The notes under the pieces were generated by a model. The model saw nothing but the letters and a program-made list of their open reading frames with translations, ran no database searches and had not been told where the DNA came from. Of a stretch of 64,000 nucleotides of DNA, positions 3,967 to 63,411 are shown one piece after another. A program made the translations under genes and the position numbers. The stretch is from Podarcis cretensis. Taxonomy: Eukaryota. Each line of letters begins with the position of its first letter. Within the stretch, counting starts at the first letter, position 1. The stretch spans positions 5,022,001 to 5,086,000 of the forward strand of contig OX638161.1 of assembly GCA_951804945.1 (NCBI GenBank), written 5' to 3'.

Positions 3967-4984
3967 GTAAGAACAATTTGTTATGATTGCGCCTGATGCA
4001 TGTGCTTTATGCTGATCTGCCAGTTGTGTGATATATTGGTACTAATAGTAACATATTCCCACATGGACAAGAAACAGTGTAATCTGGAAAATTATTAACA
4101 TGACAGAATGAAAGTCTGGAAATAAGAAATAATCTATATTTTATGAATTGGTTGAAGAGCTCTGCTGGAGTAGATAGATAGAGTGTGTAACATATAGTGT
4201 ATATTAAATAATTGGTTATATTCAGTTTTCATTGTAATGTTGAATATTAAACAGCACTCTCCTGGTGCTTTAACATTCCTTTCTTAGGTACTCAGACAAC
4301 ATTCCTCCACCTTTATCTAGCTACAGAGATTACTTATGAAAAGTGGTGTATATTGAATATATACAAGTACAATAAAACCCAACTTAATGGTTGTTGTTTT
4401 ATGAGTATATATCGGATATTATGGGCAAAATTGTCCCATGTCTAGAAATAATAAGTTGTAAATCAGTCCAGGGCAAAAAAAGACATACTCTTCCAAATTC
4501 CGAATTAATTTGGTTCAGCTGAAAATTCTTCACAATCAGTTGGTATTCTACTTAGTCACATCCTTAGCAAGCTGCCATTTGATGGATTGCTAAAACCTAT
4601 GAGAGAAATCATACACAGCAGCAATAATCAACCAGTACATTAAATTAATCAAGTTACAGCTTCTGTGATGCATTTAAGATTCCATCTGATGGCCTCATGT
4701 TCCCTAAAGCAGCCAGTACATGCATAAATGAACACTCTTAATTGCTTATATTATAAATGCCTCCCATTTTGGAAGAAACCGTTTGGCTTTATGTCTATAT
4801 TTATTTTCACTAAATTACCTCATATTTAGTGTTCCAATTTTTAAGTAGCAATAGAAATCCATTAGCTTGGGTATCACTGATGTGCTTGTTTATATATCTA
4901 GAAAGAATATTGTTATGATGGACTATTTTAAGAACATTGAACATCTCTTTAATCTCTCTGGATGTTATAACCTTACTGTTCTCA

Positions 4985-5173: not shown

Positions 5174-6302
5174 GGGTTCCAACCATCCCCATTCAACCTC
5201 TGTATATTTACTGGTGACAATGAAAGTTTTGAATTATACCCTGATAATTGCATGCCACTGCACAGAACATGTTGGATGAAAGAGAATCAGTCATGTGGTT
5301 TAGTGAGCAAAGTGTAAGGCTTAGCCTGAGGAGATCTTGATTCCAGCACCTCCTCTCAGCCATGGAGCTCACTGGTGTTGTTGGGCCTGTTGGTCTCAGC
5401 TAATTTGCAAGAAAAAATATGTGGGGGATTTGCCACCCCACCATCTTTGGAGGAAGGTAGACGTCTAACAAAGAACATGTCCACAGCTGTACAAGTGATG
5501 ACTTGTTGACTTATGCCCCACTTAGTGTGTGTTGGCAGAAATGTTTTACGTAAGTTTAAACCACTACAGCAGGGATGGGGAACTTGTGACATTCCAGACG
5601 TTTCTGGAATCCTTAGTCAACATGGTCAGGGTTATGAGAGTTGTAGTTCTGCAAAGTCTGGAGAGAAATGAGTCCCAGTGCCTCCATTATAACTTCTAAG
5701 AATGTATGCAGACTTTAACAGCATTTACATAAATGGGTGTTTGGGTGATATCCAGTTAAATAGTAGAGTAGACCCATTAAAATAAATCAACTTTACATCA
5801 GGCATTTTTGAATGGATCTACTCTAAGTAGGAGAGGTGGAGGAAAGAGAATAAAACATGATACAAGGGAAGAATGATGGGTCATCTGACCTTATCAGACA
5901 ACGCAAGACCACAAATAGGGCTTGAAGTAAGGAAAAATATATTGCAAGGCAGTACCTTGTGGTTTTGTGAGCACATGCTTTGAAGTTTTTGTTTATCATA
6001 AAAAAAATACTCCAAAGCATGCCTACACCATTACCATACTTGCAAATTATACCATCCAGCAGGCTTTTTCACAATTATGAAAAACGGTGTTTGATTGATT
6101 TTCCTAGATGCCCACTACTTAAAACAGACAATATTTATTAGTCGACACCTATACACTTTGGCATAGCCAGCTTCCCAGATGCTAATCAGTGGATGGCAGC
6201 TTGGAAAAAGTGGTTTTCACATGCAGTCAGAGCAAAACTAAGCAATAGATATTTGACTTGATGATCAAAGTAACTAGTAAATTCCAATTGATTCCCCTGT
6301 AG

Positions 6303-6473
6303 GTAATGGACGACATGTGCCACAAAAGCCTCCTAGAGGCAACCCACGTGGCCCACCCCAGTTAGTGATTCCCCCACCCCCACCATACCCTCCTCCTGAC
6401 AGAGATACTATGGATCCAAGCGTATTGTACAGTGAAGCCGATGTTACAGACCCACCCAAGCTGGTACCTAAAC
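6303..6473 (+). CDS. COBL: COBL proline-rich cassette exon (GNGRHVPQKPPRGNPRGPPQLVIPPPPPYPPPDRD...)
   Basis: Acceptor attcccctgtag|, donor AAC|gtatgt. 171 nt, phase 1-1. Resembles the VPQKPPRG..RGPPQLVLPPPPPYPPPD segment of longer mammalian Cobl isoforms. Confidence 0.88.
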
Positions 6474-7336
6474 GTATGTTTGAATAATTGCATATTTCAT
6501 TTTCTTTACTTCCGTGGGGTGGGGCTTTTTCCAGACTTTCCTCTGTTCTCTTTCCAGTCATACATGTGTTTTCCTCTCCACCCTGTCTCCTTTTTAAAAA
6601 ATGCACAATGCATTATATTAATTTGACTAATATATTTGTTTCAAGAATGTCAACTCTTTACTGATAACAATCATGATCTTACTTCATGCGTTTGGATACT
6701 AAAATGAGATTCATTATTTGTTTCTTGTTTCTTTTTTATAAAGTTTTTATTTATTTATTTAGGGCTTTCTTGTTGTTTCCTCTCATTTCAACATAGCTTT
6801 GTTGTTTTTTCCTCGCTTTCAACGAACGTTGTAGCCCATTTTCCACAACAATAATTTTTTGAGTTAGAATATTAAATAGTGCACATTTATTCTCGTATCT
6901 GTCTAGTATTTACAATCTACAGCTCTGCCTTTTTCGAAAGCACCTGACTTATAGGTATAAAACTGTGTTGGGGGGGATGGGAGACAGCATTTTTAAATGC
7001 TTAAAAATTAATAATGAAGAACAAAATCCACAGTTTTTCAGTTAATTTTGTCCGTTTTTTAATAGAAGTTTTATAAGTTTTATAAAATTTCTTTCTAAGC
7101 CTTCTGGCAAATATCTCTTTGTCCATGTAAAGAAATCATTTAGGGATAATTGAGGGAAACAACCATATGTGGGAAGGCTGAAGCCCAGGATAGGTTCTTA
7201 GGTTATTGTCCAGTGAAGAGAAAGAATTCCCATTCCAGTTCAGTCTCTTAGCCCAGACCTTTGTCCCAGTGCCAAGTGGCTTGAGGGTTGTCTTCCTGCA
7301 CTGTGATGTAGCAAAGCCATCAAACCAGCCGCTTCC

Positions 7337-12169: not shown

Positions 12170-12305
12170 CAGGCATGGCCAAACTTGGCCCTCCAGCTGT
12201 TTTGGGACTACAACTCCCATCATCCCTAGCTAACAGGACCAGTGGTCAGGGATGATGGGAATTGTAGTCCCAAAACAGCTGGAGGGCCAAGTTTGGCCAA
12301 GCCTG
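12170..12305. mobile_element. hAT-type palindromic MITE
   Basis: Near-perfect 136-bp hairpin CAGGCATGGCCAAACTTGGCCCTCCAGCTG..; 8-bp TSD ATCTAATG at 12162-12169 and 12306-12313. Confidence 0.9.
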
Positions 12306-15170: not shown

Positions 15171-16186
15171 GGCATGGGTCTGAGCTGTTTTGCCTTTCTC
15201 CTGCCAGTTTCCTTTGGAAAATCCACTCTTTCGCACTAAATTGGAACAAATGGCAATCCATGGAAAATCTGGTTGCTGTTTGTTCCAGTTCAGTGCTGAA
15301 GCACAGGTTTTCCTGGGGGAAGGCATCAGGGCAAACGGAAGTGTGCATGATCCCTCCGTTCACTTTCTTGGGGCTATGCTTCCCAGGACCAGGGGATGAT
15401 TCCCATGTCACCTGGTTGAGATAACACACATATTGAGTCCCCTATGCATGTTCACACAGATGTGGCTTTAAATGGGGCTTACTCCTAGGTGTGTGGGCTC
15501 TTGTCTTTAGGAGGTCAAAGATTCTGTTATTCACTGGTGGCAGGGTTATGAAAAACACCTGCCTGTTGGTCAGAGTCGGTGTTAATTCATATTTAGAGAA
15601 GGAAGTGAAGTCAATTCATATTTAAAGAAGGAAGTGAATCAGTGGTGGGGAACTGGATACAACTTGTGACCTCACCTGCAAGCCATATGGACAGGTGGGT
15701 AGGTCAGCCCACCTGCCAGTCACCTATTGTCATTATGATACCAACTTCAAAGGGACTTTCTTTCAGCACCAAGCTGCACTACTTGCCAAGGAACTATCTG
15801 GAGCACACTTCAAACTCCTGAATAATCTTTTGCAACAGCACCTTTACCTACTGCACACCGGCATCAGGTGTGGGGCAGGTGGGCATAGTTTGGTGAAAAC
15901 AGAATTGTGGGCCAAATTAGAATCCCTTCCAGGCCTCATTGCACCCACAGGGCAGATATTCCCCATCACTGCACTAAACCAAACCATCCTCAGGGCAGCA
16001 TTACCTAGCTCATTCAAAGATGCACTGGTGGTGATTTGCTGAATGAGAAAAGAGCAGCTACAGAAGGATGAAATTCAAGTACCCCTTTTGCCACTGAGAA
16101 AAAGCTAAGTTCAACCTCCACAGAGTTTCTATAAGTTACACTTCTGGGTGGGGAATGAATGCAACTTACTTTTAGTGTACATGTAT

Positions 16187-16538
16187 AAAGGTAAAGGGAC
16201 CCCTGACCATTAGGTCCAGTCGTGGCCGACACTGGGGTTGCGGCACTCATCTCGCTTTACTGGCCGAGGGAGCCGGTGTACAGCTTCTGGGTCATGTGGC
16301 CAGCATGACTAAGCCGCTTCTGGCGAAACCAGAGCAGCGCACGGAAACGCCGTTTACCTTCCCGCCAGAAGGGTACCTATTTATCTACTTGCACTTTGAC
16401 GTGCTTTTGAACTGCTAGGTTGGCAGGAGCAGGGACCAGGCAACAGGAGCTCACCCTGTCGCGGGGATTCGAATCGCCAACCTTCTGATCGGCAAGTCCG
16501 AGGCTCTGTGGTTTAACCCACAGCGCCACCTGTGTCCC
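16187..16538 (-). mobile_element. Sauria SINE, subfamily A
   Basis: tRNA-like head and (ACCTTT)n tail on the minus strand. Homologous to 21596, 29053 and 38087. Confidence 0.9.
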
Positions 16539-18971: not shown

Positions 18972-19627
18972 CTTTCATTTTTGTTTGGATTCATAGTTGT
19001 TTTTCTACTGCTCTTATACTTCAGGATGTCAGGGTTTTGCAAGCAGACGGGAACCTAGAACAAAGTTCCAAATAGCTTGTACAGAGGTGGCACAGGGTCA
19101 TCCATTTTGAACCATCATGGCTGCTGTAATGTGTGTTTTAAACTACCTGGTTCTACGGGTTAACAGCCCCCCCTCTCGAAAACCTGCTAGGCTAAGGCCT
19201 AACACAGACATCAAATTATCTAATCTGTTTTCAGTGAGCAACACACAAATGAATTAAACTGTGCTGATATATTATGTTGCTTGACTATAAGTATAATAAA
19301 AATGAGATATGAGAATATATTCATTCTTCTAAATATTAAGTGCCATAAAGAGCCACATACAGGAATCTTACACAGCCACATACAGAAAATGTCATGATAT
19401 TCATCATTACAGTTCTCTATTTGAGAAAGTTGCCTGTGTCTGGAGTCTTTATGGCTCATTCAGTATTTGCTTCTCATCAGTCACATCAGGCCATTCTTCA
19501 GGAACCAGTACCCCTTGGACGGGAAGGGGGGGCAGTAAACAGGAGGGAGGAAAATGACACAACAATGTTATAGAATTGAAAATGGCCACAACTTTATTTG
19601 TCACAGATGTAGGTAGGCTTTGGCTTC

Positions 19628-19765
19628 CAGTGGTTCTCAACTTGTGGGTCCCCAGATGTTGTTGGACTACAACTCCCATCATCCCTGAGCTCTGGGCTTG
19701 CTAGCGAGGGGTGATGGGAGTTGTAGTTCAACAACATCTGGGGACCCACAGGTTGAGAAAGGCTG
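19628..19765. mobile_element. hAT-type palindromic MITE
   Basis: Hairpin TTCTCAACTTGTGGGTCCCCAGATGTTGTTG..CAACAACATCTGGGGACCCACAGGTTGAGAA. Shares the core ggactacaactcccatcatccct with 12170. Confidence 0.8.
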
Positions 19766-20600
19766 GCTTAGACAGTGGGTTTGTATCCTAAATCAGCCTC
19801 CTGACTGAAGGCTGATGTTTGAACAGAGTCATGCCTGGGTTAAGGGTCATTTCAAGATGCAGGTCAGCTAAGCTGCCCCTCCACCAGGCCTCCATTGAAA
19901 GTTCTAGGCTCACCTGCTCCACTTTTCGGCTCCAGGACAGAATCTTCCACGCGGACGCCTTTGGAGGGGTACCCTGACATACTGCATCAGCTCAAGGGTG
20001 GGCGGAGGTGGGGCACCAACTCTCGCCCACGTCCCAGGAATAGATTGAAGATACAACCCATTGCCTTATACATCAGAAGTTGTGTCAATTGCTACGATGA
20101 AGGCCCAATTTGTTTGCATGCAAATTCCTTCCCAGCCCTGAATATGGCAACCATTTATATCCACTGCAAGGTCTTCCAAACATAGTGCCCGCTGACCTGC
20201 TTGTAGGGAGGATGGGTGCATTGGCGTAGCGGGGTGGGGGGGTGGGGCTTCCACCATGGTTTGGCTGGAATGCTGCCACAGTAGTCCCCATATAAAACCA
20301 CAATCCTATTTGCATGCTGCCTTTCCACGGTTAAAAAACCACGCTTAAGGCAGTTTACTACATGAAAAGATTAACTTTAATTACAAAGATAACAAAAGTA
20401 ATCAAAAACAATAAAGCACATAAAAAGCACACAACCAAATTGCACAAGTTCCACATAAATCATAACATCTAAAAATAAAGATAACAAAAAAAAAAAAAAA
20501 ACCAGTTACAGATAGGTTGCCGTGTTGGTCTGCCATAGTCAAAACAAAATAAAAAAATTCCTTCCAGTAGCACCTTAAAGACCAACTAAGTTAGTTCTTG

Positions 20601-20638
20601 GTATGAGCTTTCGTGTGCATGCACACTTCTTCAGATAC
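20601..20638 (-). ncRNA. Minimal hammerhead ribozyme motif, antisense copy
   Basis: Exact reverse complement of 20944-20981. Confidence 0.75.
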
Positions 20639-20943
20639 ACTGAAACAGAAGTCACCAGACCCTTCTATATAGTGAGAAGGTGGGGAGGGGTATTACTCAG
20701 AAGGGTGGTGGGATTGGGTGATTGGCAGATAGCTGTGATGAGCCTGTTGCAGTCGTTAAGAGTCGTCAACATTACCTAGAAGTAAATGGGACACAGAACA
20801 CAGAGGGACTTACTGCTGAATATTAACGACTGCAACAGGCTCATCACAGCTATCTGCCAATCACCCAATCCCACCACCCTTCTGAGTAATACCCCTCCCC
20901 ACCTTCTCACTATATAGAAGGGTCTGGTGACTTCTGTTTCAGT

Positions 20944-20981
20944 GTATCTGAAGAAGTGTGCATGCACACGAAAGCTCATAC
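20944..20981 (+). ncRNA. Minimal type I hammerhead ribozyme motif (sense to COBL)
   Basis: GUAU-CUGAAGA-A-GUGUGCAUGCACAC-GAAA-GCUC-AUAC: 4-bp stem I, palindromic stem II, palindromic AGCU in place of stem III. Predicted cleavage after C20977. Confidence 0.8.
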
Positions 20982-21458
20982 CAAGAACTAACTTAGTTGG
21001 TCTTTAAGGTGCTACTGGAAGGAATTTTTTTATTTTGTTTTGAAAAAAAAAACAATAACAGCAACAAACCCCGCTAAACAAGAGTATCTTCAGCCTCAAT
21101 TTTTGTAGCTGGAGTCAGTCCAGGCCCCGCCCTCCCAGGCCAGGTGGGAAAAGGCCTGCAAGGCAGGGAGCAGGTCATCTAGGATTCTTCCTACAATAAC
21201 CTTTACATGCGCTGCCTGGCCTGAGGGCACTTAAGCCCTCCTGGCCAGAAGTACCATAAATAGAATAGATTAAATCATCCCTACTCAGGCTCCCTAGGCA
21301 GGTGAGAAGGAATGGTCCCCTCACTTCAGCTGGAACTGGGCACACACCCCATTAGCTAAGGTTTCTATCTTAATTTCCAGTCAGTGACACAATTGCTAAT
21401 TTGTTGGATTTTTGTTGTTGTTGTTTGAATGACAGGCTCTCAGCAGCAGCAGCAACTA

Positions 21459-22162
21459 TTTATTATTTATTATTTATACCCTGCCCATCTGGTTGGGTTT
21501 CCCCAGCCACTCTGGGCGGCTCCCAACAGAGCATTAAAAACACAATAAAAGATCAAACATTAAGGACTTCCCTATATAGGGTGATCAGACATTAAGGACG
21601 CGGGTGGCGCTGTCGGTTAAACCACAGAGCCTAGGGCTTGCTGATCAGAAGGTTGGCGGTTCAAATCCCTGTGATGGGGTGAGCTCCCGTTGCTCAGTCC
21701 CTGCTCCTGCCAACCTAGCAGTTTGAAAGCATATCAAAGTGCAAGTAGATAAATAGGTACCGCTCCGGCGGGAAGGTAAACGGCGTTTCCGTGCGCTGCT
21801 CTGCTTCGCCAGAAGCGGCTTAGTCATGCTAGCCACATGACCCGGAAGCTGTACGCCGGCTCCCTCGGCCAATAAAGCGAGATGAGCGCCGCAACCCCAG
21901 AGTCGGCCACGACTGGACCTAATGGTCAGGGGTCCCTTTACCCTTTATACATGGTTGCCTTCAGATGTCTTCTAAAAGTCAGATTGTTTATTTCCTTGAC
22001 ATCTGATGGGAGGGCGTTCCACAGGGCGGGCGCCACTACCAAGAAGGCCCTCTGCCTGGTTCCCTGTAATCTCGCTTCTTGCAGTGAGGGAGCCGCCAGA
22101 AGGCCCTTGGATCTGGACCTCCGTGTCCGAACTGAATGATGGGGGTGGAGACGCTCCTTCAG
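21459..22162 (-). mobile_element. L2 LINE 3' fragment, interrupted by a Sauria SINE
   Basis: Minus ORF ..TRQRAFLVVAPALWNALPSDVKEI..FRRHLK. Homologous to 33220-33605. Confidence 0.8.
21596..21946 (+). mobile_element. Sauria SINE, subfamily A
   Basis: GGACGCGGGTGGCGCTGT head, GGTTCAAATCCC box B, CCTTTACCCTTT tail. Confidence 0.92.
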
Positions 22163-24639
22163 ACGCATTAACTGTGGTTAATGCCTAAGATGTCATGCAC
22201 TAGAATGGCACTATCTCACACTTGAATTTGTGGGACGCTTGCCAAACTGTTTGCCCACCACTGTAAGAGGAGAAGCAGCTGCAATAAGGAATTGGGGTAA
22301 AAGGTTTTTCATTGCACACTTCCAACGCTACCATTTCTTGATACAGCTTCCGCCGTGATTTCAACAAGAGGGGAGTCAATACAGTTACTAAGTATATCTG
22401 AAAGCGAAGATAATAAATGTAAGTTCATAGATGCAGCTGTCATATTTTTTATAAATTTGTTAGATTATAAAGAGCAACACTGCCATTCTGGGAAGCTGTC
22501 CCAGAGCTGGCCTAGCCCCTTTTTAGGTTGCTCCTTCAAGAGGCTGCATAGATAATAGTACTGCAAATCATCCTTTGCTCTGACATTTTAATGGAAACAG
22601 AGAGAGCCATTAGGTTTTATATACACACCAATGAACATCAGCATGTAATGCATTGTGCATTTATTAAAAAACGACTGTCTGCTTTGTGTACTTTCCTGCT
22701 CTGCTATTGTATCTCTTCTGGCCTTCATGCATTTTATTTTTTTAAATGGCTAGAAAGTTTTGTTTATAATTTTAGCGTGGGTTTTTTTTCTGATCATGTT
22801 TTCTACTTGTAATACGGGTGGTTATGTATTTTCTGCCTTTTATCTGTGTTTGTATAGGTGCTGTTCTGAATCTTTTTCTTTATTATTTGTATGTGTTGCA
22901 TTTGATTTGATAATACTATATTTTACTTTTTGTTTAAATAGTATTTTACTTATTTATTGTAAATCACCCAGATAACTTTATGTTATGGGTTGGTACTCAC
23001 ATGTCATAAATAAATAAACAAATCATATGTAACTTGATTTTAATTTGGTGGGGGCACACAATAGTAGTGCTGGAAATTGGGCGAATTTTCATTGCCTCCC
23101 AAATTCTAGGCAGTGCCAGGAACCTTTAGCAGCACCCACAGTCATTAATTTTGGAATTTGCAGAGCTTTAATTGTGATTTGCAACCTTTTAAGTTTTACT
23201 GATTGTGCTGCCAGAAATTGAGTTGTGTGCTTAATGGGTACTGCATGATTTCAATCAAGGAGACTTGTCCTTTAATTTTATTTAATATTTCACTGACAAA
23301 GATGCAGGTATCTCCAAACATTTTACTCAGAGTTTAAACTTTGGATATGTAACAAATGCATGCCCTAAACACATGAATCATTTTGAGTATTCCAAAACAG
23401 GAAAAAACCTCAATTTGAAAAACATGTTCACTGTGAGATTTTTTATTTCAATAGTCATTACTCCCTGTCACCTCCCTCCAAAATAAATGTTTTCTTAAAA
23501 AAAAAACCAACCCATTTTCCTTTATAATCTACTTGTTTCTTTGCAACAAGCTTGCTGAGGTTCTGTAGAAACTTGTAATGATCTTTATCTAAGTTAACAG
23601 GCACACGTAGCTTAAATACAACAGTGCCTTCACTGCTGAAAACCTATTGTTCCGTTAAAAACTTGATTCATTTCAGTAAATGTACAAAATGCTGAAATGT
23701 ACACTTCAATAGATTTACGCTTTCAGAACTGGTGGTTGTGATGTTCTTTGCAAAGTTTTTCAGTTTTTATATTGTTTTAAACGAAAGCTAAAAAGTTTTG
23801 CATCTGATCCTGTATGTCCAAATTCGTCTTAAAATAAAAAGAAATTAAGACTGCAATCCTAGCCCCAATTAACTGGGAATAAGTCCCTTTGAATTCAATG
23901 GCAATTACTTCTGAGTAGATTTAGGATTGCCCTGTAAAGCATCCTTGAACCATCCTGTGCATGTTTATTCAAAAGTAAGTCCCTCTGTGTTCTGTGTCCC
24001 ATTTACTTCTAGGTAAGTGTGGTTCGGATTGCTGCTTATTGACAAAGTCTGTTCAAAACTGAACACTTTTAATTGGTGCGGATTTCAATGGGAGGATCAC
24101 TCAAATGGTTAAACATTTGGGGTTTTTTAAACTTTATTTACAATTTTATTAAACCACCCTTTCATAAAGGAAATAACAAGGCAGAAAAGAACCTATTAAG
24201 CAAAATAAACCAATATATCCATAAAAACCATATTGAAACATCAATAAATACCGATTGGATTAGTGAACGGAGTTGGCGCACCATCTAGCTAGGAAAACGC
24301 ACTCCTGGCCACAGAGGTCCCTGAGGCATCTAGTGACAGGGATGGGTCAAGGAGTCTCCTTCAGAGGGAGTGCCACCCTGTCCAGTACATGCAGTTGACT
24401 AATCTCATGGACATGGGAACCACCCACCCTTAACAGAATTCAAGCTCAATTCAGAGAGTTGATCTCTTTAAGAACTCTTGAGATGTTTGCCATGAAGACC
24501 CAGTGACATGTTCATTTGTGTTTCACCAATTTAGCTCTAGAACATCATCTCTTGTTTGATGAAGTTTGTCAGATGCTCATTGCAAAATTACTAGTTGAGG
24601 CATGAATATCTATCAAACATCTTCAGCAGTGAAGGCCGA

Positions 24640-25556: not shown

Positions 25557-25667
25557 CCACATTGTGGTGCATTCTGCTAAACAGAGGAAGAGGGGCTTTT
25601 TGAATGTGTTATTTATTTCAAAAAAGTGACAAATGGTATTTAACTGTTTTTGCCATGTTTCGTCTAG

Positions 25668-25974
25668 GCAATTTACACCTTTCGCGTGATATTTCTAGCA
25701 TGGAAGATGTAGCTCTGGAACTGTCAGAAACAGAGGACACGATCTCTGTTAGCAGCTGCTTTACCTCAGAGGACACCACAGAAGATTCAGGTGTTATGAG
25801 TTCCCCCTCTGATGTTGTCTCATTGGAGTCTCAGAATGACAGCGTGAGGTCAAGAGACAAGTCCATCGGGGCCCAGGAGACCTTGACCGAGGTGGATTCC
25901 ATGTATGTTGAACAGACGTGCTCTGTAAGGAATGCATTCTCCAGTAGTGATGAGTCTGGAATTGTTTCCCAAAG
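25668..25974 (+). CDS. COBL: COBL coding exon (..[33 protein letters not shown]..)
   Basis: Acceptor tttcgtctag|, donor AAG|gtaggt. 307 nt, phase 1 to 2. Contains the COBL signature [16 protein letters not shown]. Confidence 0.95.
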
Positions 25975-28495: not shown

Positions 28496-28586
28496 GTTGA
28501 TGTTAAATTGATTAAATTTGATTATGCAGTGTCAATAGAAAAAAAGGAACAACCTTTTCATTCCTTTTCTTTTGTTTTGTTGTCAG

Positions 28587-28684
28587 TAGCAGGGATGAGG
28601 ACGAAATGATGGAAGCTAAGTTTGAAAACGCAGATGTGTTCATAGCTACTCAGGCCTTGGCTGCATTGGACAAAGACCTAATGG
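28587..28684 (+). CDS. COBL: COBL coding exon (SSRDEDEMMEAKFENADVFIATQALAALDKDLMA)
   Basis: Long polypyrimidine tract, then cag|tag|cag; donor G|gtaggt. 98 nt from the first AG, phase 2 to 1, which exactly bridges the flanking exons. LAALDKDL resembles COBL LAELDEDL. Confidence 0.85.
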
Positions 28685-29052
28685 GTAGGTTGAAGTTTAA
28701 ATTTGCACATCTGTATTGCAAAAAGAATGCAGGAAAAAGGCAAATGGTGACAATCCATCAGTTAGGCAGATGAGAGAGCAGTCAAACTGGGAAACTCCAT
28801 AGAGGTGGGACAGATCTCATAACTCAGGCTCTATCTAGTAGCAGCATATACCTCATCAGATTGTTCAGCTTCCATTGCCAACTTGTCTTACCTTTTTGGG
28901 ACAGTGTTGTGGGAGGTTATTCACAGTAGACAACAATCTGTTACTAAATATTATGAGGGTATAGTGAAAAACTGAAACAAGCCCATGAATTTCTTAATAT
29001 TGTTATTTACTTTGGTCATTACATTGAAAGGATGTTGAGTAGCCCTTGATAG

Positions 29053-29406
29053 GTAAAGGTAAAGGGACCCCTGACCATTAGGTCCAGTCATGACCGACTC
29101 GGGGTTGCGGCACTCATCTCGCTTTATTGGCTGAGGGAGCCGGCGTACAGCTTCCGGGTCATGTGGCCAGCATGACTAAGCCGCTTCTGGCGAAGCAGAG
29201 CAGTGCACGGAAATGGCGTTTACCTTCCGGCCAGAGCGGTACCTATTTATCTACTTGCACTTTGATGTGCTTTTCAACTCCTAGGTTGGCAGGAGCAGGG
29301 ACCGAGCAACGGGAGCTCACCCCTTCGTGGGGATTCGAACCGCCGACCTTCTGTTCGGCAAGTCCTAGCCTCTGTGGTTTAACCCACAGTGCCACCCGCA
29401 TCCCTA
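29053..29406 (-). mobile_element. Sauria SINE, subfamily A, full length
   Basis: 13-bp TSD TAGCCCTTGATAG at 29040-29052 and 29407-29419. Confidence 0.93.
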
Positions 29407-59090: not shown

Positions 59091-60189
59091 GAGGAGCATG
59101 GGCACCTCAACAAGTTCCAAGTGGAAACACACCTTGGCCCATGCCCAGCCTGCCCCCCACTGGGGGCAGAGACCGAATATACTCTCCCCATGCAGTTTGT
59201 AGAGAAACACTGTGCTCCATAGCAGATGCTTCTTTTATTCCATGTGCCCAGGCTGTGATCCTGCAAAAGTACCGGGTACTTGGGTTTGGCAGAAGTGCCA
59301 ATGGCCATAGGGGAGTGCCTGGTCTTGGTTGGCAGAGAACTTGCCTGCAAGTGTCTCCAGGGTGTCTGGGACATCGCTCTGTGCCACTGAGGGTGGGGGG
59401 AAGGGCGCCAGAGCACTGCACTTTAGACATGGTCTTCACGTACGACAAAAGGTGGTGTTGGGCGACATACAGAATCACAGGTTGCCCACACCTGGGTCAA
59501 AACAGTGTTGTGTGGTCTTAATAAATTTGTGATCCACTAGACCACTCCCTCTCTCTCTACACACACACACCACGAAAAGATTCAGGGGCAGCACTTTCTT
59601 GGGGGTTTGGCTTCTTTTGAAGGGAATGGTCATTGGAGACATTTGGTGGTTTTGCAACGTTTAGGTTGATTTATAGTCCTACAAATTTGAGCACAGATGG
59701 ACACAAACAGCAGAGCACTCCTGTAAGCCACAACTTTGTTGCCTTGCACCAGATCTCTCAAGATACCCCCAGGATCCTTTCAGTTCACTCCCTGCCCCCC
59801 TTTCTCTTCTCCATTTCTGTTCCAAATCTTGCCTTCCCCCTTTGCTGCTTTTCCCTCGCACGACCTCAGTACCTGCCCTGTGCTGTGCGGCTGGAGATGG
59901 GGATAGGGATCGAGGAATGTCTTATCTGAAATGGTCCTTCCAGCCCAGGGGGATGTCCAGCTATTCCAAGGCCTTTGGGGACCCTTTACCTGTCATTTCC
60001 CCTTTTTAAAAAAGGGATCTGAGCGACATGTTTGGCCTTACGTTGCCTCTCAAATACTATAATCTCATAATAAAATGCAGTCACAATTCAGAAGCCACTA
60101 TCACGGTAGGTCAAATCCAGTGACCATCTATCGAGAGCAACCGGCGGAGAGGCGACCTGAAGCTGTGCAGAGAGGGCTTGGGAGCAGAC

Positions 60190-60405
60190 CAGTGGCGTAG
60201 CGTGGGGGGTGCAGGGGGGCCGGCCGCAACATCTGGGGGTTAGAGTTAGGGATAGGGTAAAGGTAAAGGTAAAGGTACCCCTGTCCGTACGGGCCAGTCT
60301 TGACAGACTCTGGGGTTGTGCGCCCATCTCACTTAAGAGGCCAGGGGCCAGCGCTGTCCGGAGACACTTCCGGGTCACGTGGCCAGCGTGACATCGCTGC
60401 TCTGG

Positions 60406-60436
<31 letters not shown>

Positions 60437-60734
60437 CGCACACGGAAACGCCGTTTACCTTCCCGCTGGTAAGCGGTCCCTATTTATCTACTTGCACCCG
60501 GAGGTGCTTTCGAACTGCTAGGTTGGCAGGCGCTGGGACCGAGCAGCGGGAGCGCACCCCGCCGCGGGGATTCGAACCGCCGACCTTTCGATCGGCAAGC
60601 CCTAGGCGCTGAGGCTTTAACCCACAGCGCCACCTGCGTCCCAAGGGATAGGGTTAGGGGGCGCAAATCCACGGGTTAGGGGGCGCAAATTACTTGCCTT
60701 GCCCCAGGTGCTGACAACCCACGCTAGGCCACTG
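60190..60734. mobile_element. hAT-like MITE hosting a Sauria SINE
   Basis: TIR CAGTGGC(G/C)TAGCGTGGG; flanking direct repeat AGCAGAC at 60183-60189 and 60735-60741. Confidence 0.8.
60259..60643 (-). mobile_element. Sauria SINE, subfamily B, with (GCCAGA)n expansion
   Basis: 11-bp TSD AGGGATAGGGT at 60248-60258 and 60644-60654. Confidence 0.93.
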
Positions 60735-60749
60735 AGCAGACCTGTTTCC

Positions 60750-62400
60750 CCCCCTCTCCTGTTATGGCAAGCCTGGGGGTTCGGAGCCCAGCCGGCGCAG
60801 GGAGCGGGCCTGCCCTCGCCTCGCCTCGCCTCGCCTCGCCGGCCGCCAGGCGTCCGCTGCGCCCCGGAGCGAGGGCCCTTGGCAGCGCGCAGCCCGGCCG
60901 CCCCGAACATGGCTGCCCGGAGGGGGAGGAAGGGGCTGGCGTCGGCGCCCACCCCCCGGTCGCCGTCCCGCCAAGAAAGTCCGGCCCGCGCCGGGTCCCC
61001 GAGGCGGAAGGCTCGCCTCGCCAGGAGCCCCGTCGGCGGCGGCGGCGGCGCAAGACGCGAGGGCTCCCTCCCCGCGCGCCTCCTGCCCGCTGCCTGCTCC
61101 CCGCGCGCCCAGGGCGCCGTCGGTTGCGGCTGCGCGCAACAAGCGGCGGGAGGGGGCGGCGGCGGCGGCGGCGGGGGAGGGTTTAAAGCCCGGCGGAGGC
61201 GGAGGCGATGCCTGGGAGCGGGGAAGGCGAGTCAGCTGAGGAGCGAGCGCGGGCAGCAGCAGCAGCGGCAGGAGGAGAAGGCGGCGGCGGCGCGCAGCCC
61301 GGAGTTGCCGGAGGACGGACGCCTGGAGGGCAGCTCCTGGCCGGCCTCGGCCGCAGGTTGGGCTGCCCTTCTCCCGCTTTCGGTGCATCCCCCTCCCCTT
61401 CCTCCCGGAGGAAGAGCTGCCCCTTCCCGTCTCGGCGGGTCCCTCCCTCCTCTCCCTCTTGCCCGGCCGCTCCGAAACTTGCTGGGAGGGCCGCGCCAGG
61501 CAGGCGAGCGGGAGCCACGCGGGGGACGGAGCCCGGACCCGGTCCTTGCTGGTGAGCGGGCGGGCGGGCGGCGGAGAGGCGGGCGCGCGGCGGCCCCTCT
61601 GCCTAAGCCAGGCGAGGAAGTTTCTGGCCGTCCCGGGAGCGGAGAAGTCCTGGTCGCCCCTCCGCCGCCGCAGCTGCGGATCCGGGCGGCGCGGGCTGGG
61701 AAGGACTTTCCGGCCAGTTGGCGAAGCGCGCGCAGGATGGCTCGCCCGCCGCCTCCCTCCTCCGGGCAACTTGGCGCGCCCGAGGGGGAGCTGCGCGCGG
61801 GGGGAGAAGCAGCGCACCAAGCGCGCGGCCGGGGGATGCGGCGCCCGGGCTTTCGGGTCGCTTTCGCCGCCTTCTTCTTCCCTTCCTTCCTTCCTTTCTT
61901 TTCTCCTTTCAAGGCGGGCGAGACTTCTCCGGAGCCTCGGTGCCCTTTCCACATTGCATCATAAAACCAGGGTGGAGCCAGCGCGCCCGCCCGCCCGCCC
62001 GCCTGCTCCTCCTCCTCCTCCGCCGCCGCCGCCTGCCCTTCTGCAAGTAACCCCAGCGGAGGGGCTTGCCCGGCTCTCCCAATCGCCGCCGCCGCCGCCG
62101 CTCCGGCGCGCGCTGCCCTTGGTGCGGGTCGGGGGCCGCGCTTGTCCCGGGAAAGTGCCCGAGAGGAGGCTGCTTTGGCCGGAGGCGGAGGCGGAAGAGA
62201 GCTCGGGCTCTCCTGGTCCGGTAAGAAACGAGGCTCCCGGCTGCGGGCGAGAGACTGAGCTGGGAAGGCGCCGGCTTCGGGGCTGCGCCGACGGAGTTTG
62301 CCAGCCACGTTGTGGCCGCTGGGTTGCGGCGACTGTCTGTTGGCGACGATTGCGCGCGTGGCACTGGATCTTTTGGGCCAAAAAGGATTCCCCCAAACTT
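60750..62400 (+). promoter_or_regulatory. CpG island; probable GRB10 promoter and non-coding first exon(s)
   Basis: Very GC- and CpG-rich with GGC repeats and GC boxes. TTTAAA near 61182. Donor-like sites CTG|gtgagc (61552), CAA|gtaacc (62047), CCG|gtaaga (62221). Gene identity is inferred only from COBL-GRB10 synteny. Confidence 0.7.
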
Positions 62401-63411
62401 TTGGTTTCCCTTCGCCGCCTTTTCCGAAGGGTGGCTAGCCAGAGCAGTGGTGGAGGTCGCGGAATTATGGTGCATCTTTTTAGAAAAAAACCTCCCCCCC
62501 CCCAAGGGAGGTTCTTGGCATGAATGCAAGGGTGAAAAGTGCTTGGTTTCCCTGCACAATGCAGGGCCATCAACTGGCCTTAAATTATGTAAGGCACTTC
62601 TGAAGGTTACTGCTGCTTATTACTGTTTTGTAGGCACTGCTTGCAGAAAGATATCCCAATCCTTTGGCAGCTGTTGCTTCCCTCTTCATTTGTTTTGATG
62701 ATGGTATCCATGGGGGTGTGCTCCGAGCATCATCTTACAACCCCCCTTCCACTTGTCTATTTGTTGAACATTACCTGCTTTGGCACAGGGAAAACGTTGC
62801 TTCCTTTTGCGCCCTTGCATTGGTGTGTTGGTACAGTTGGTACAGCAACTGTTTTACATTAGCACAGTTTCCAAACTCGTTTTATGAACCCCTTTCTTGG
62901 CATCTTATTGGACCACTTAAACTTCTCATTCTACTAATCAAAAGTACCTTTGCAACTCATTATATTAATTGTGATCTTGTTGTCCAGTGTGGTGGGTGCA
63001 AATGTTTTCTGAGCAAACGTCAGGCGTAAGTAATCTTTGTAAGCTTTAGCCTTGGGGTTGGGTTCAGCAGTCATCTTATTTTTGTATTGGGATTTGAGGG
63101 TGGCAAGTGATGAAAATCCCATCTTGTACAGGGATGTGAAAAGCAAAGCATTCTTTCCCATTGTCATCAAAACCAGCGCTGCATTATGAGAACCATGGAG
63201 CCTGGCCTAGGGGCTTGTTGACCTTTTGATAATTCAGTCCTCCATCATCACATTGAGGAAAATAAGTGCGGCCTTTCCACAGGCCACAGTTTAAAAACCT
63301 TTGCCATAGTTGAGGTCATTTCTATTTCCATTGTATGTGTTTCTCTTTCTTGCATACTGGGGCAAGTGACTTGCTGTAAGAGCAAGCTGCAGTAAACAAG
63401 TGTAGTTGAGA

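Follow-up and report, generated by a model that had tools for sequence, protein, structure and literature searches.

The window analyzed here is a 64,000-nucleotide stretch of the Podarcis cretensis genome (contig OX638161.1, positions 5,022,001 to 5,086,000), and positions are counted from its first letter. It contains coding exons of COBL on the plus strand; a 664-residue exon product finds its best matches in ‘protein cordon-bleu’ of Podarcis at 95–96% identity, which rules out COBLL1 as the host gene. Searches with tblastn place the coding exon 5′ of the intron of interest at 6293–6508 (queries P0003 and P0004; right edge approximate, 6484–6508) and the coding exon 3′ of it at 25664–25972, both on the plus strand, so that the intron spans ~19.2 kb. 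Within this intron, 20539–20759 is the exact reverse complement of 20823–21043, giving arms of 221 nt around a 63-nt loop, and a repeat search of the window extends the arms imperfectly to up to 226 nt; a chance origin for a 221-bp exact inverted match is far out of reach. The original prediction had described these arms and this loop within a 19-kb COBL intron and had placed the antisense arm first in the pre-mRNA. Sequence comparison and exon placement agree on each point, the last because the COBL exons lie on the plus strand. The window holds other repeats as well. Copies of a SINE-like repeat, 91% identical and in opposite orientations, lie at 16180–16537, 21596–21953 and 29055–29406; the first two form an inverted pair in the intron at 91% identity, and the pair 21593–21945 and 29055–29406 brackets the COBL exons at 25664–25972 and 28585–28686. 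Two short MITE-like self-inverted repeats (85–90% complementary) occupy 12170–12305 and 19627–19766 of the COBL intron, and a GC-rich island (69%) at 60000–62600, downstream of COBL, is probably the promoter of the next gene.

The inserted element is larger than its palindromic arms. An A16 run (20486–20501, plus strand), the probable target site, is followed by a 37-nt Penelope ‘tail’ that adds to the left arm only (20502–20538, minus strand, 0 to −36 on the element when counted from its tail end). Arm 1 (20539–20749, minus strand, −37 to −247) is antisense in the COBL pre-mRNA and meets a sense piece of the element (20750–20771, plus strand, −264 to −243) at the element’s CCTATTG/CAACAGG quasi-palindrome. 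Beyond this piece lie 51 nt of host DNA (20772–20822, minus strand) and a 10-nt inverted copy of 20750–20759 that is non-collinear with the element and forms the inner end of the palindrome (20823–20832, plus strand). Arm 2 (20833–21043, plus strand, −247 to −37) is sense in the pre-mRNA, lacks the tail and abuts an A9 run (21044–21052, plus strand). Element coordinates were set against the long family copy L070. With its tail, the left arm covers 0 to −247 in minus-strand orientation, and the right arm, in plus-strand orientation, covers −247 to −37. Collinearity with the element extends over just 211 bp of each arm; the 10 bp on the inner side are a junction product, and both arms are 5′-truncated at about −247 to −264 in head-to-head order. 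The original prediction had recognized the arms and the inverted insertion, whereas the tail and the origin of the loop had been overlooked. Target duplications of ~7–13 nt are visible at most sister loci; here the flanks are A16 and A9, and any duplication would be hidden within the left A run.

Comparison of 20502–20771 with the genome (40 of 478 candidates scored) gave 39 other loci in which the last 242–248 bases match at 97–100%, and among the matches listed at least five other copies are 100% identical over 248 shared bases. The window arms are 98.4–98.6% identical to the 3′ end of L070. No ORF is retained in the window copy, and longer family copies encode RVT_1 (E 4.8e-11) and GIY-YIG (E 2.4e-5) domains, above Pfam cut-offs in L069; the family is therefore an endonuclease-bearing Penelope-like element, which substantiates the class originally proposed. 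In L069 a Cys-rich linker, CNKPRCELCCH, was found by eye between the reverse transcriptase and the nuclease, and such a linker is described as a Neptune feature in PMC8557442, which suggests a Neptune-type family. PAc, the Poseidon element of Anolis carolinensis (PMC11167929), is likewise a lizard element with reverse transcriptase, GIY-YIG and a hammerhead in its pLTR, it uses AT-rich targets, and two reverse-transcription start sites bound its tail; the COBL family differs from it in the Cys-rich linker that points to the Neptune type.

The same layout recurs at many other loci. The hammerhead pattern carried by the arms has 7,958 exact matches in 1.5 Gb, and when neighbouring motifs <3 kb apart are counted as pairs, head-to-head (−/+) pairs occur at 20 of the 79 loci formed by the first 100 matches (95% interval 16–36%), with no tail-to-tail (+/−) pair and one +/+ pair among the same 100. 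A second marker gave 18 −/+ pairs in 80 loci and no +/− pair (99 of 100 listed matches entered; one singleton missed). Extrapolation from these first 100 matches, which lie in the first 9.3 Mb of one contig, a chromosome end at twice the mean density, gives a rough genome-wide figure of ~1,600 (1,000–2,300) head-to-head units. An animal non-LTR retrozyme, whose units stand in tandem, head to tail, and each carry a type I hammerhead (10.64898/2026.07.22.740005), was ruled out, as the copies here are inverted, with 1 tandem against 20 inverted pairs in the first 100 matches. Any head-to-head pair reads antisense-first on either strand, hence the order seen in COBL; the self-masking layout therefore needs no special explanation, and a reading of it as special to COBL is not supported. 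Two further short inverted units lie in the COBL span itself, C13:4960271–4960486 (L087) and C13:4973184–4973372 (L085, a perfect 152-nt palindrome), both between the first and second coding exons. The first coding exon lies at C13:4956274, and a solo sense copy is found ~1.1 kb before it at C13:4954988–4955129.

How does one insertion come to have two opposed arms and a single tail? A lizard Penelope protein has been shown to cut and extend each of the two target strands, with the tail bounded by two reverse-transcription start sites (PMC11167929). Both nicked strands of the A-rich target could thus have primed reverse transcription at the element’s two start sites, 37 nt apart, and two cDNAs, one per strand, that met at the CCTATTG/CAACAGG quasi-palindrome and were joined mid-way would account for the arm ends. 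This route is drawn from end positions, as the accessible text of PMC11167929 does not itself derive inverted copies from the two-strand reaction. Arm ends were compared in 24 other inverted units, all selected for the presence of two arms; L053, L069, L075, L077, L078 and another unit within L061 were excluded, being complex or unparsed. The tail arm finishes between +1 and −15 relative to the tail end (median −2; here 0), and the tail-less arm ends at −28 to −66 (median −38; here −37), within −32 to −44 in 19 of the 24. Moreover, the arms reach unequally into the element, by >30 nt, in 18 units (≥300 nt in 9), as fits two independent cDNAs; reach is near-equal in the other 6, and where it is not, the tail-less arm goes deeper in 14 and the tail arm in 4.

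The same element could also have produced the locus by another route, in which self-primed DNA synthesis, folding back over the whole of arm 1, made arm 2 in place of a second reverse transcription. Self-priming has been proposed for head-to-head Penelope repeats in PMC3846280, in several short units the pivot lies at corresponding positions in the two arms, and near-equal arm reach was also seen in several of 20 further units. In the window both arms stop at −247 and have in common a rare 10-nt non-native junction, which counts against two cDNAs and which whole-arm fold-back would fit: a 20-mer across this junction has 3 genome matches, against 1,799 for the native junction. The inner 10 nt had been considered as proof of such a fold-back, a use that was dropped when arm 2 was found to end at the usual second start site. 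A fold-back copy would have no reason to stop at −37, unequal reach in three quarters of the units is not what it predicts, and self-copying is needed for only ~15 nt. For these reasons whole-arm fold-back is judged unlikely, and two-strand priming remains the preferred reading. The formation of inverted Penelope ends is still described as undefined in PMC8557442. Two side observations concern element ends elsewhere. Target bases beside the duplication match the element end by ~3–7 nt at L058, L059, L060, L062, L063, L065, L066, L068 and L073, which may hint at primer-template pairing in vivo, although PMC11167929 found no homology in vitro. In L096, L101, L108, L112 and L115, the two arms break off between −134 and −140, just ahead of helix I (−136) rather than at the cut site (−103); these units come from a biased sample, as each arm had to carry an intact motif for a unit to be selected.

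The closest known counterpart of this layout is Pen2a_Av (PMC3846280; layout in PMC8557442), in which a 5′-truncated copy likewise adjoins an inverted copy head-to-head, the inverted pLTR being 37 bp shorter. Insertions of this type carry a 30–40-bp tail on one end only, a short target duplication and, occasionally, captured host DNA. The COBL unit differs in that it has no ORF, its target duplication is unreadable in the A run, and its captured piece is 51 nt long and traceable to a site 3.1 kb away.

That piece is of local origin. The loop segment 20772–20822 is an inverted copy of 23966–24016 (plus strand), with 49 of 51 positions identical and 43 nt exact. This donor lies 3.1 kb further downstream within the intron and belongs to an old dispersed repeat. 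A 24-mer from it occurs, with ≤1 mismatch, only in the loop and the donor (1.5 Gb searched), and other copies of the donor’s repeat are 75–85% alike over long stretches or 87–92% over 38–46 nt, far less than the donor, so that a generic old repeat was ruled out as the source; element sequence was ruled out too, the longest exact match to element copies being 9 nt. Read along the plus strand, the centre runs from antisense element ending in CCTGTTG, through 22 nt of sense element ending in CAACA, into the captured 51 nt, then through the 10-nt inverted copy of 20750–20759 to CAACAGG and sense element, with CAACA occurring twice, at 20767–20771 and 20833–20837. A subfamily with this inner rearrangement was likewise ruled out: the junction 20-mer has 3 genome matches, the third of which reflects an independent join made at this quasi-palindrome. 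At locus C1:1146746 the ends are joined at the same spot without an insert. During fill-in, the growing strand would have paused after CAACA and copied 51 nt of the donor, 3.1 kb distant; a snap-back onto itself, covering 10 nt plus CAACA, and rejoining would have followed. Two observations count against this account: the loop carries two adjacent mismatches to the donor (donor 23972–23973) although the arms are unaltered, and the captured piece shows no evident microhomology at its ends. Local copying from 3 kb away during insertion is nonetheless the likely source of the loop.

Inverted local capture is uncommon. Within ~4.5 kb of flank on each side, it was seen in 1 of 44 other units, namely in L065 among the 24 compared above and in none of the remaining 20, and the traceable capture is the only uncommon feature of the COBL locus. 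In L065, 30 nt of right-flank DNA from 267 bp away (donor L065:5388–5417) was captured in inverted orientation with the same geometry as in the window, and it appears twice, at 4540–4569 and 4667–4690. In synthesis-dependent end joining (SD-MMEJ), locally templated and snap-back pieces that resemble the COBL loop reportedly arise. Templated insertions at L1 junctions (PMC11702581) are similar in being short and locally templated with snap-back copies; the COBL loop differs from both in lying at the central junction of a Penelope inversion, with a donor 3.1 kb away. A literature search of main texts, mostly open-access, found no published local capture at Penelope inversion junctions. On a bolder view, central junctions would record what the cDNA ends touched, and here the reverse transcriptase would have jumped onto nascent COBL RNA; on the strand synthesized from the tail end the captured piece reads antisense, which such a jump would predict, and this view is judged unlikely.

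How old is the insertion? The original prediction had taken arm identity to imply either a very young insertion or gene conversion. The arm carries the family majority letter at all 211 collinear positions (80 copies, 47 loci), and the family is young. The right junction with arm sequence is also found in contigs of three other organisms: in A (X1 record 8) with 33 arm letters and 57 on the flank side, in B (X5 record 23) with 25 arm letters and in C (X6 record 23) with 24, of which A alone passes the 31-letter rule for a junction crossing. Contigs of two further organisms, D and E, lack the arm: they align from 21046 and 21044 rightwards, and their 596 and 754 letters leftwards do not fit it, so that these are apparently empty sites in related organisms in which the insertion is absent. 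A loop-bridging piece or an empty-site joint was not among the contigs listed (four sets on 20000–24200, mostly repeat contigs). The X5 contig differs from the window flanks at 24 of 2,727 positions (~0.9%), an age at which 1.9 arm differences are expected. The insertion is young, then, but it likely predates these lineage splits and is not brand-new, which tempers the ‘very young’ of the original prediction. Elsewhere in the intron, contigs of four sets split in two at 22313–22316 with 29–182 extra letters between the parts, and the window therefore has the shorter allele there.

An older insertion whose arms were kept identical by gene conversion or hairpin repair would accommodate both the junction common to three other organisms and the ~1.9 arm differences expected from flank divergence, and in one unit, L062, the two arms have in common 21 variants that no other sampled locus shows. 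That unit (L062:4139–5359) is inverted, 92% like the family, and has a 428-nt spacer whose ends are themselves inverted; it is either a divergent source copy or a case of real arm homogenisation. In the window there is no sign of conversion because the arm equals the family majority at every collinear position: no private variant is common to the arms, and none exists to have been copied. Arm-arm differences pooled over 19 other pairs number 46 in 6,299 positions (five pairs with self-overlapping or very short matches left out), with no substitution in 3 of the 19, and L053 and L085 are two more perfect arm pairs. The probability of no mismatch in 221 positions is 0.20 from the pooled pairs and 0.14 from the flank-divergence age. 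Homogenisation of the arms is thus highly improbable. An assembly artefact is more remote still and can be practically discounted: such structures can trouble short-read assemblies, as PMC8557442 states, and the loop is unbridged by any contig among those listed, but the assembly consists of 51 contigs, the junction of arm 2 with its flank recurs in an independent contig (the 33 + 57 letters of X1 record 8), and the difference in arm length is exactly what the family rule predicts.

Each arm carries the motif GUAU CUGAAGA A GUGUGCAUGCACAC GAAA GCUC AUAC, with cores starting at 20948 on the plus strand and 20634 on the minus strand. The motif was assigned feature by feature against the published minimal hammerhead (PMC4209133). 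In the sense copy (20944–20981, plus strand), a minimal type I hammerhead, helix I of 4 bp pairs 20944–20947 with 20978–20981, the CUGANGA box is CUGAAGA (20948–20954), and an extra unpaired A (A20955) precedes helix II (20956–20960 with 20965–20969), in which G20956–C20969 is the 10.1–11.1 pair. The GAAA box (20970–20973) overlaps the palindromic AGCU (20973–20976), and the NUH cut site is CUC, with the cut predicted, by counting on the sequence, after C20977 (C17). Its mirror (20601–20638, minus strand) is antisense in the COBL pre-mRNA. Core boxes, 4-bp helix I, the extra nucleotide before helix II, G10.1–C11.1, palindromic positions 15/16 and the lack of loop 3 are all those of the minimal hammerheads of metazoan Penelope-like elements (PMC4209133), in keeping with the original prediction of a minimal type I hammerhead with palindromic AGCU in each arm. 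One difference is helix II, which has 5 bp and a 4-nt loop within a 14-nt palindrome, against 7–8 bp in the Schistosoma minimal hammerhead, and PMC4209133 already mentions hammerhead pairs 100–700 bp apart on opposite strands. The Rfam hammerhead models, the check originally proposed, gave no match at gathering score in the whole window or at E≤10 in 20400–21150, probably owing to the absent helix III and loop 3. MIR2118 matches over 20400–21150 fell below gathering score and were rejected as a mere reflection of the long hairpin.

In the 542-nt plus-strand RNA (MFE −451 kcal/mol), forcing the hammerhead to form costs +69.7 kcal/mol, the core is predicted to pair with the other arm at P≥0.997, and prefix folding puts the duplex in place before the core is made. 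These predictions accord with the earlier claim of a ribozyme buried in duplex. Alone, helices I and II reach −6.8 kcal/mol against −9.9 for an alternative fold, the monomer has no helix III, the AGCU dimer helix contributes −2.5 kcal/mol, and the pairing predicted for two copies runs through the helix-II palindrome instead (ViennaRNA; a pseudoknotted active dimer lies outside the model). Masking probably changes little, because single minimal hammerheads showed no cleavage in vitro and their dimers cleaved weakly (PMC4209133), and the Anolis hammerhead needed the element’s protein and was dispensable for insertion in vitro (PMC11167929).

On COBL transcription, the arms would zip into a 221-bp duplex, be edited by ADAR and leave with the intron. 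In vertebrate nuclei the usual fate of intronic duplexes is editing and degradation, and no regulatory role is predicted for this one. More than 40,000 hyper-edited sites are reported in lizard Penelope in PMC5625713, which lends class-level support to the original suggestion of an ADAR substrate and makes editing of the COBL hairpin plausible. The hyper-edited repeats of that study resemble the hairpin in forming long near-perfect intronic duplexes from inverted repeat copies; here both arms come from one insertion, a link that the accessible text of PMC5625713 does not make. Could the hairpin be a selected RNA switch, in which editing, helicases or the element’s protein release a hammerhead that cuts the COBL pre-mRNA, or in which small RNAs from the duplex matter to the host? 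The core is intact and in sense orientation in the intron, the two arms hold 126 adenosines, heavy editing could open such duplexes (PMC5625713), and the Anolis ribozyme is protein-assisted (PMC11167929). Against this, the sequence is the commonest family form among the 7,958 motif matches, the weak AGCU pairing and helix-II palindrome described above disfavour an active dimer, and the insertion is apparently absent in the two related organisms with empty sites. Moreover, a scan of 4,822,001–5,086,000 found just one further sense motif within the COBL span, at C13:4960393; it lies 82.6 kb upstream and is partly covered by its own antisense arm. A selected switch is accordingly a very improbable reading.

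The locus very probably holds one 5′-truncated head-to-head Penelope-like insertion, likely primed from two strands, whose hammerhead is predicted to be paired and inactive in the COBL pre-mRNA. It adds one more case to an established insertion type; its ribozyme motif is known, as is the consequence for editing at the level of the class, and as one among an estimated thousand or more units of this layout in the genome it carries little weight by itself. The pattern of arm ends fits two-ended priming, and the traceable loop piece indicates that the joint can take up copies of nearby host sequence. In related lizards, a comparison of filled with empty alleles would offer a clean test of the effect of an intronic hairpin on its host gene. 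If central junctions do record what the cDNA ends touched, the head-to-head units of lizards, on the order of 1,600 per genome, would allow two-ended priming, and insertion while the host gene is transcribed, to be tested directly, and their self-made hairpins could explain the heavy Penelope editing reported in lizard.
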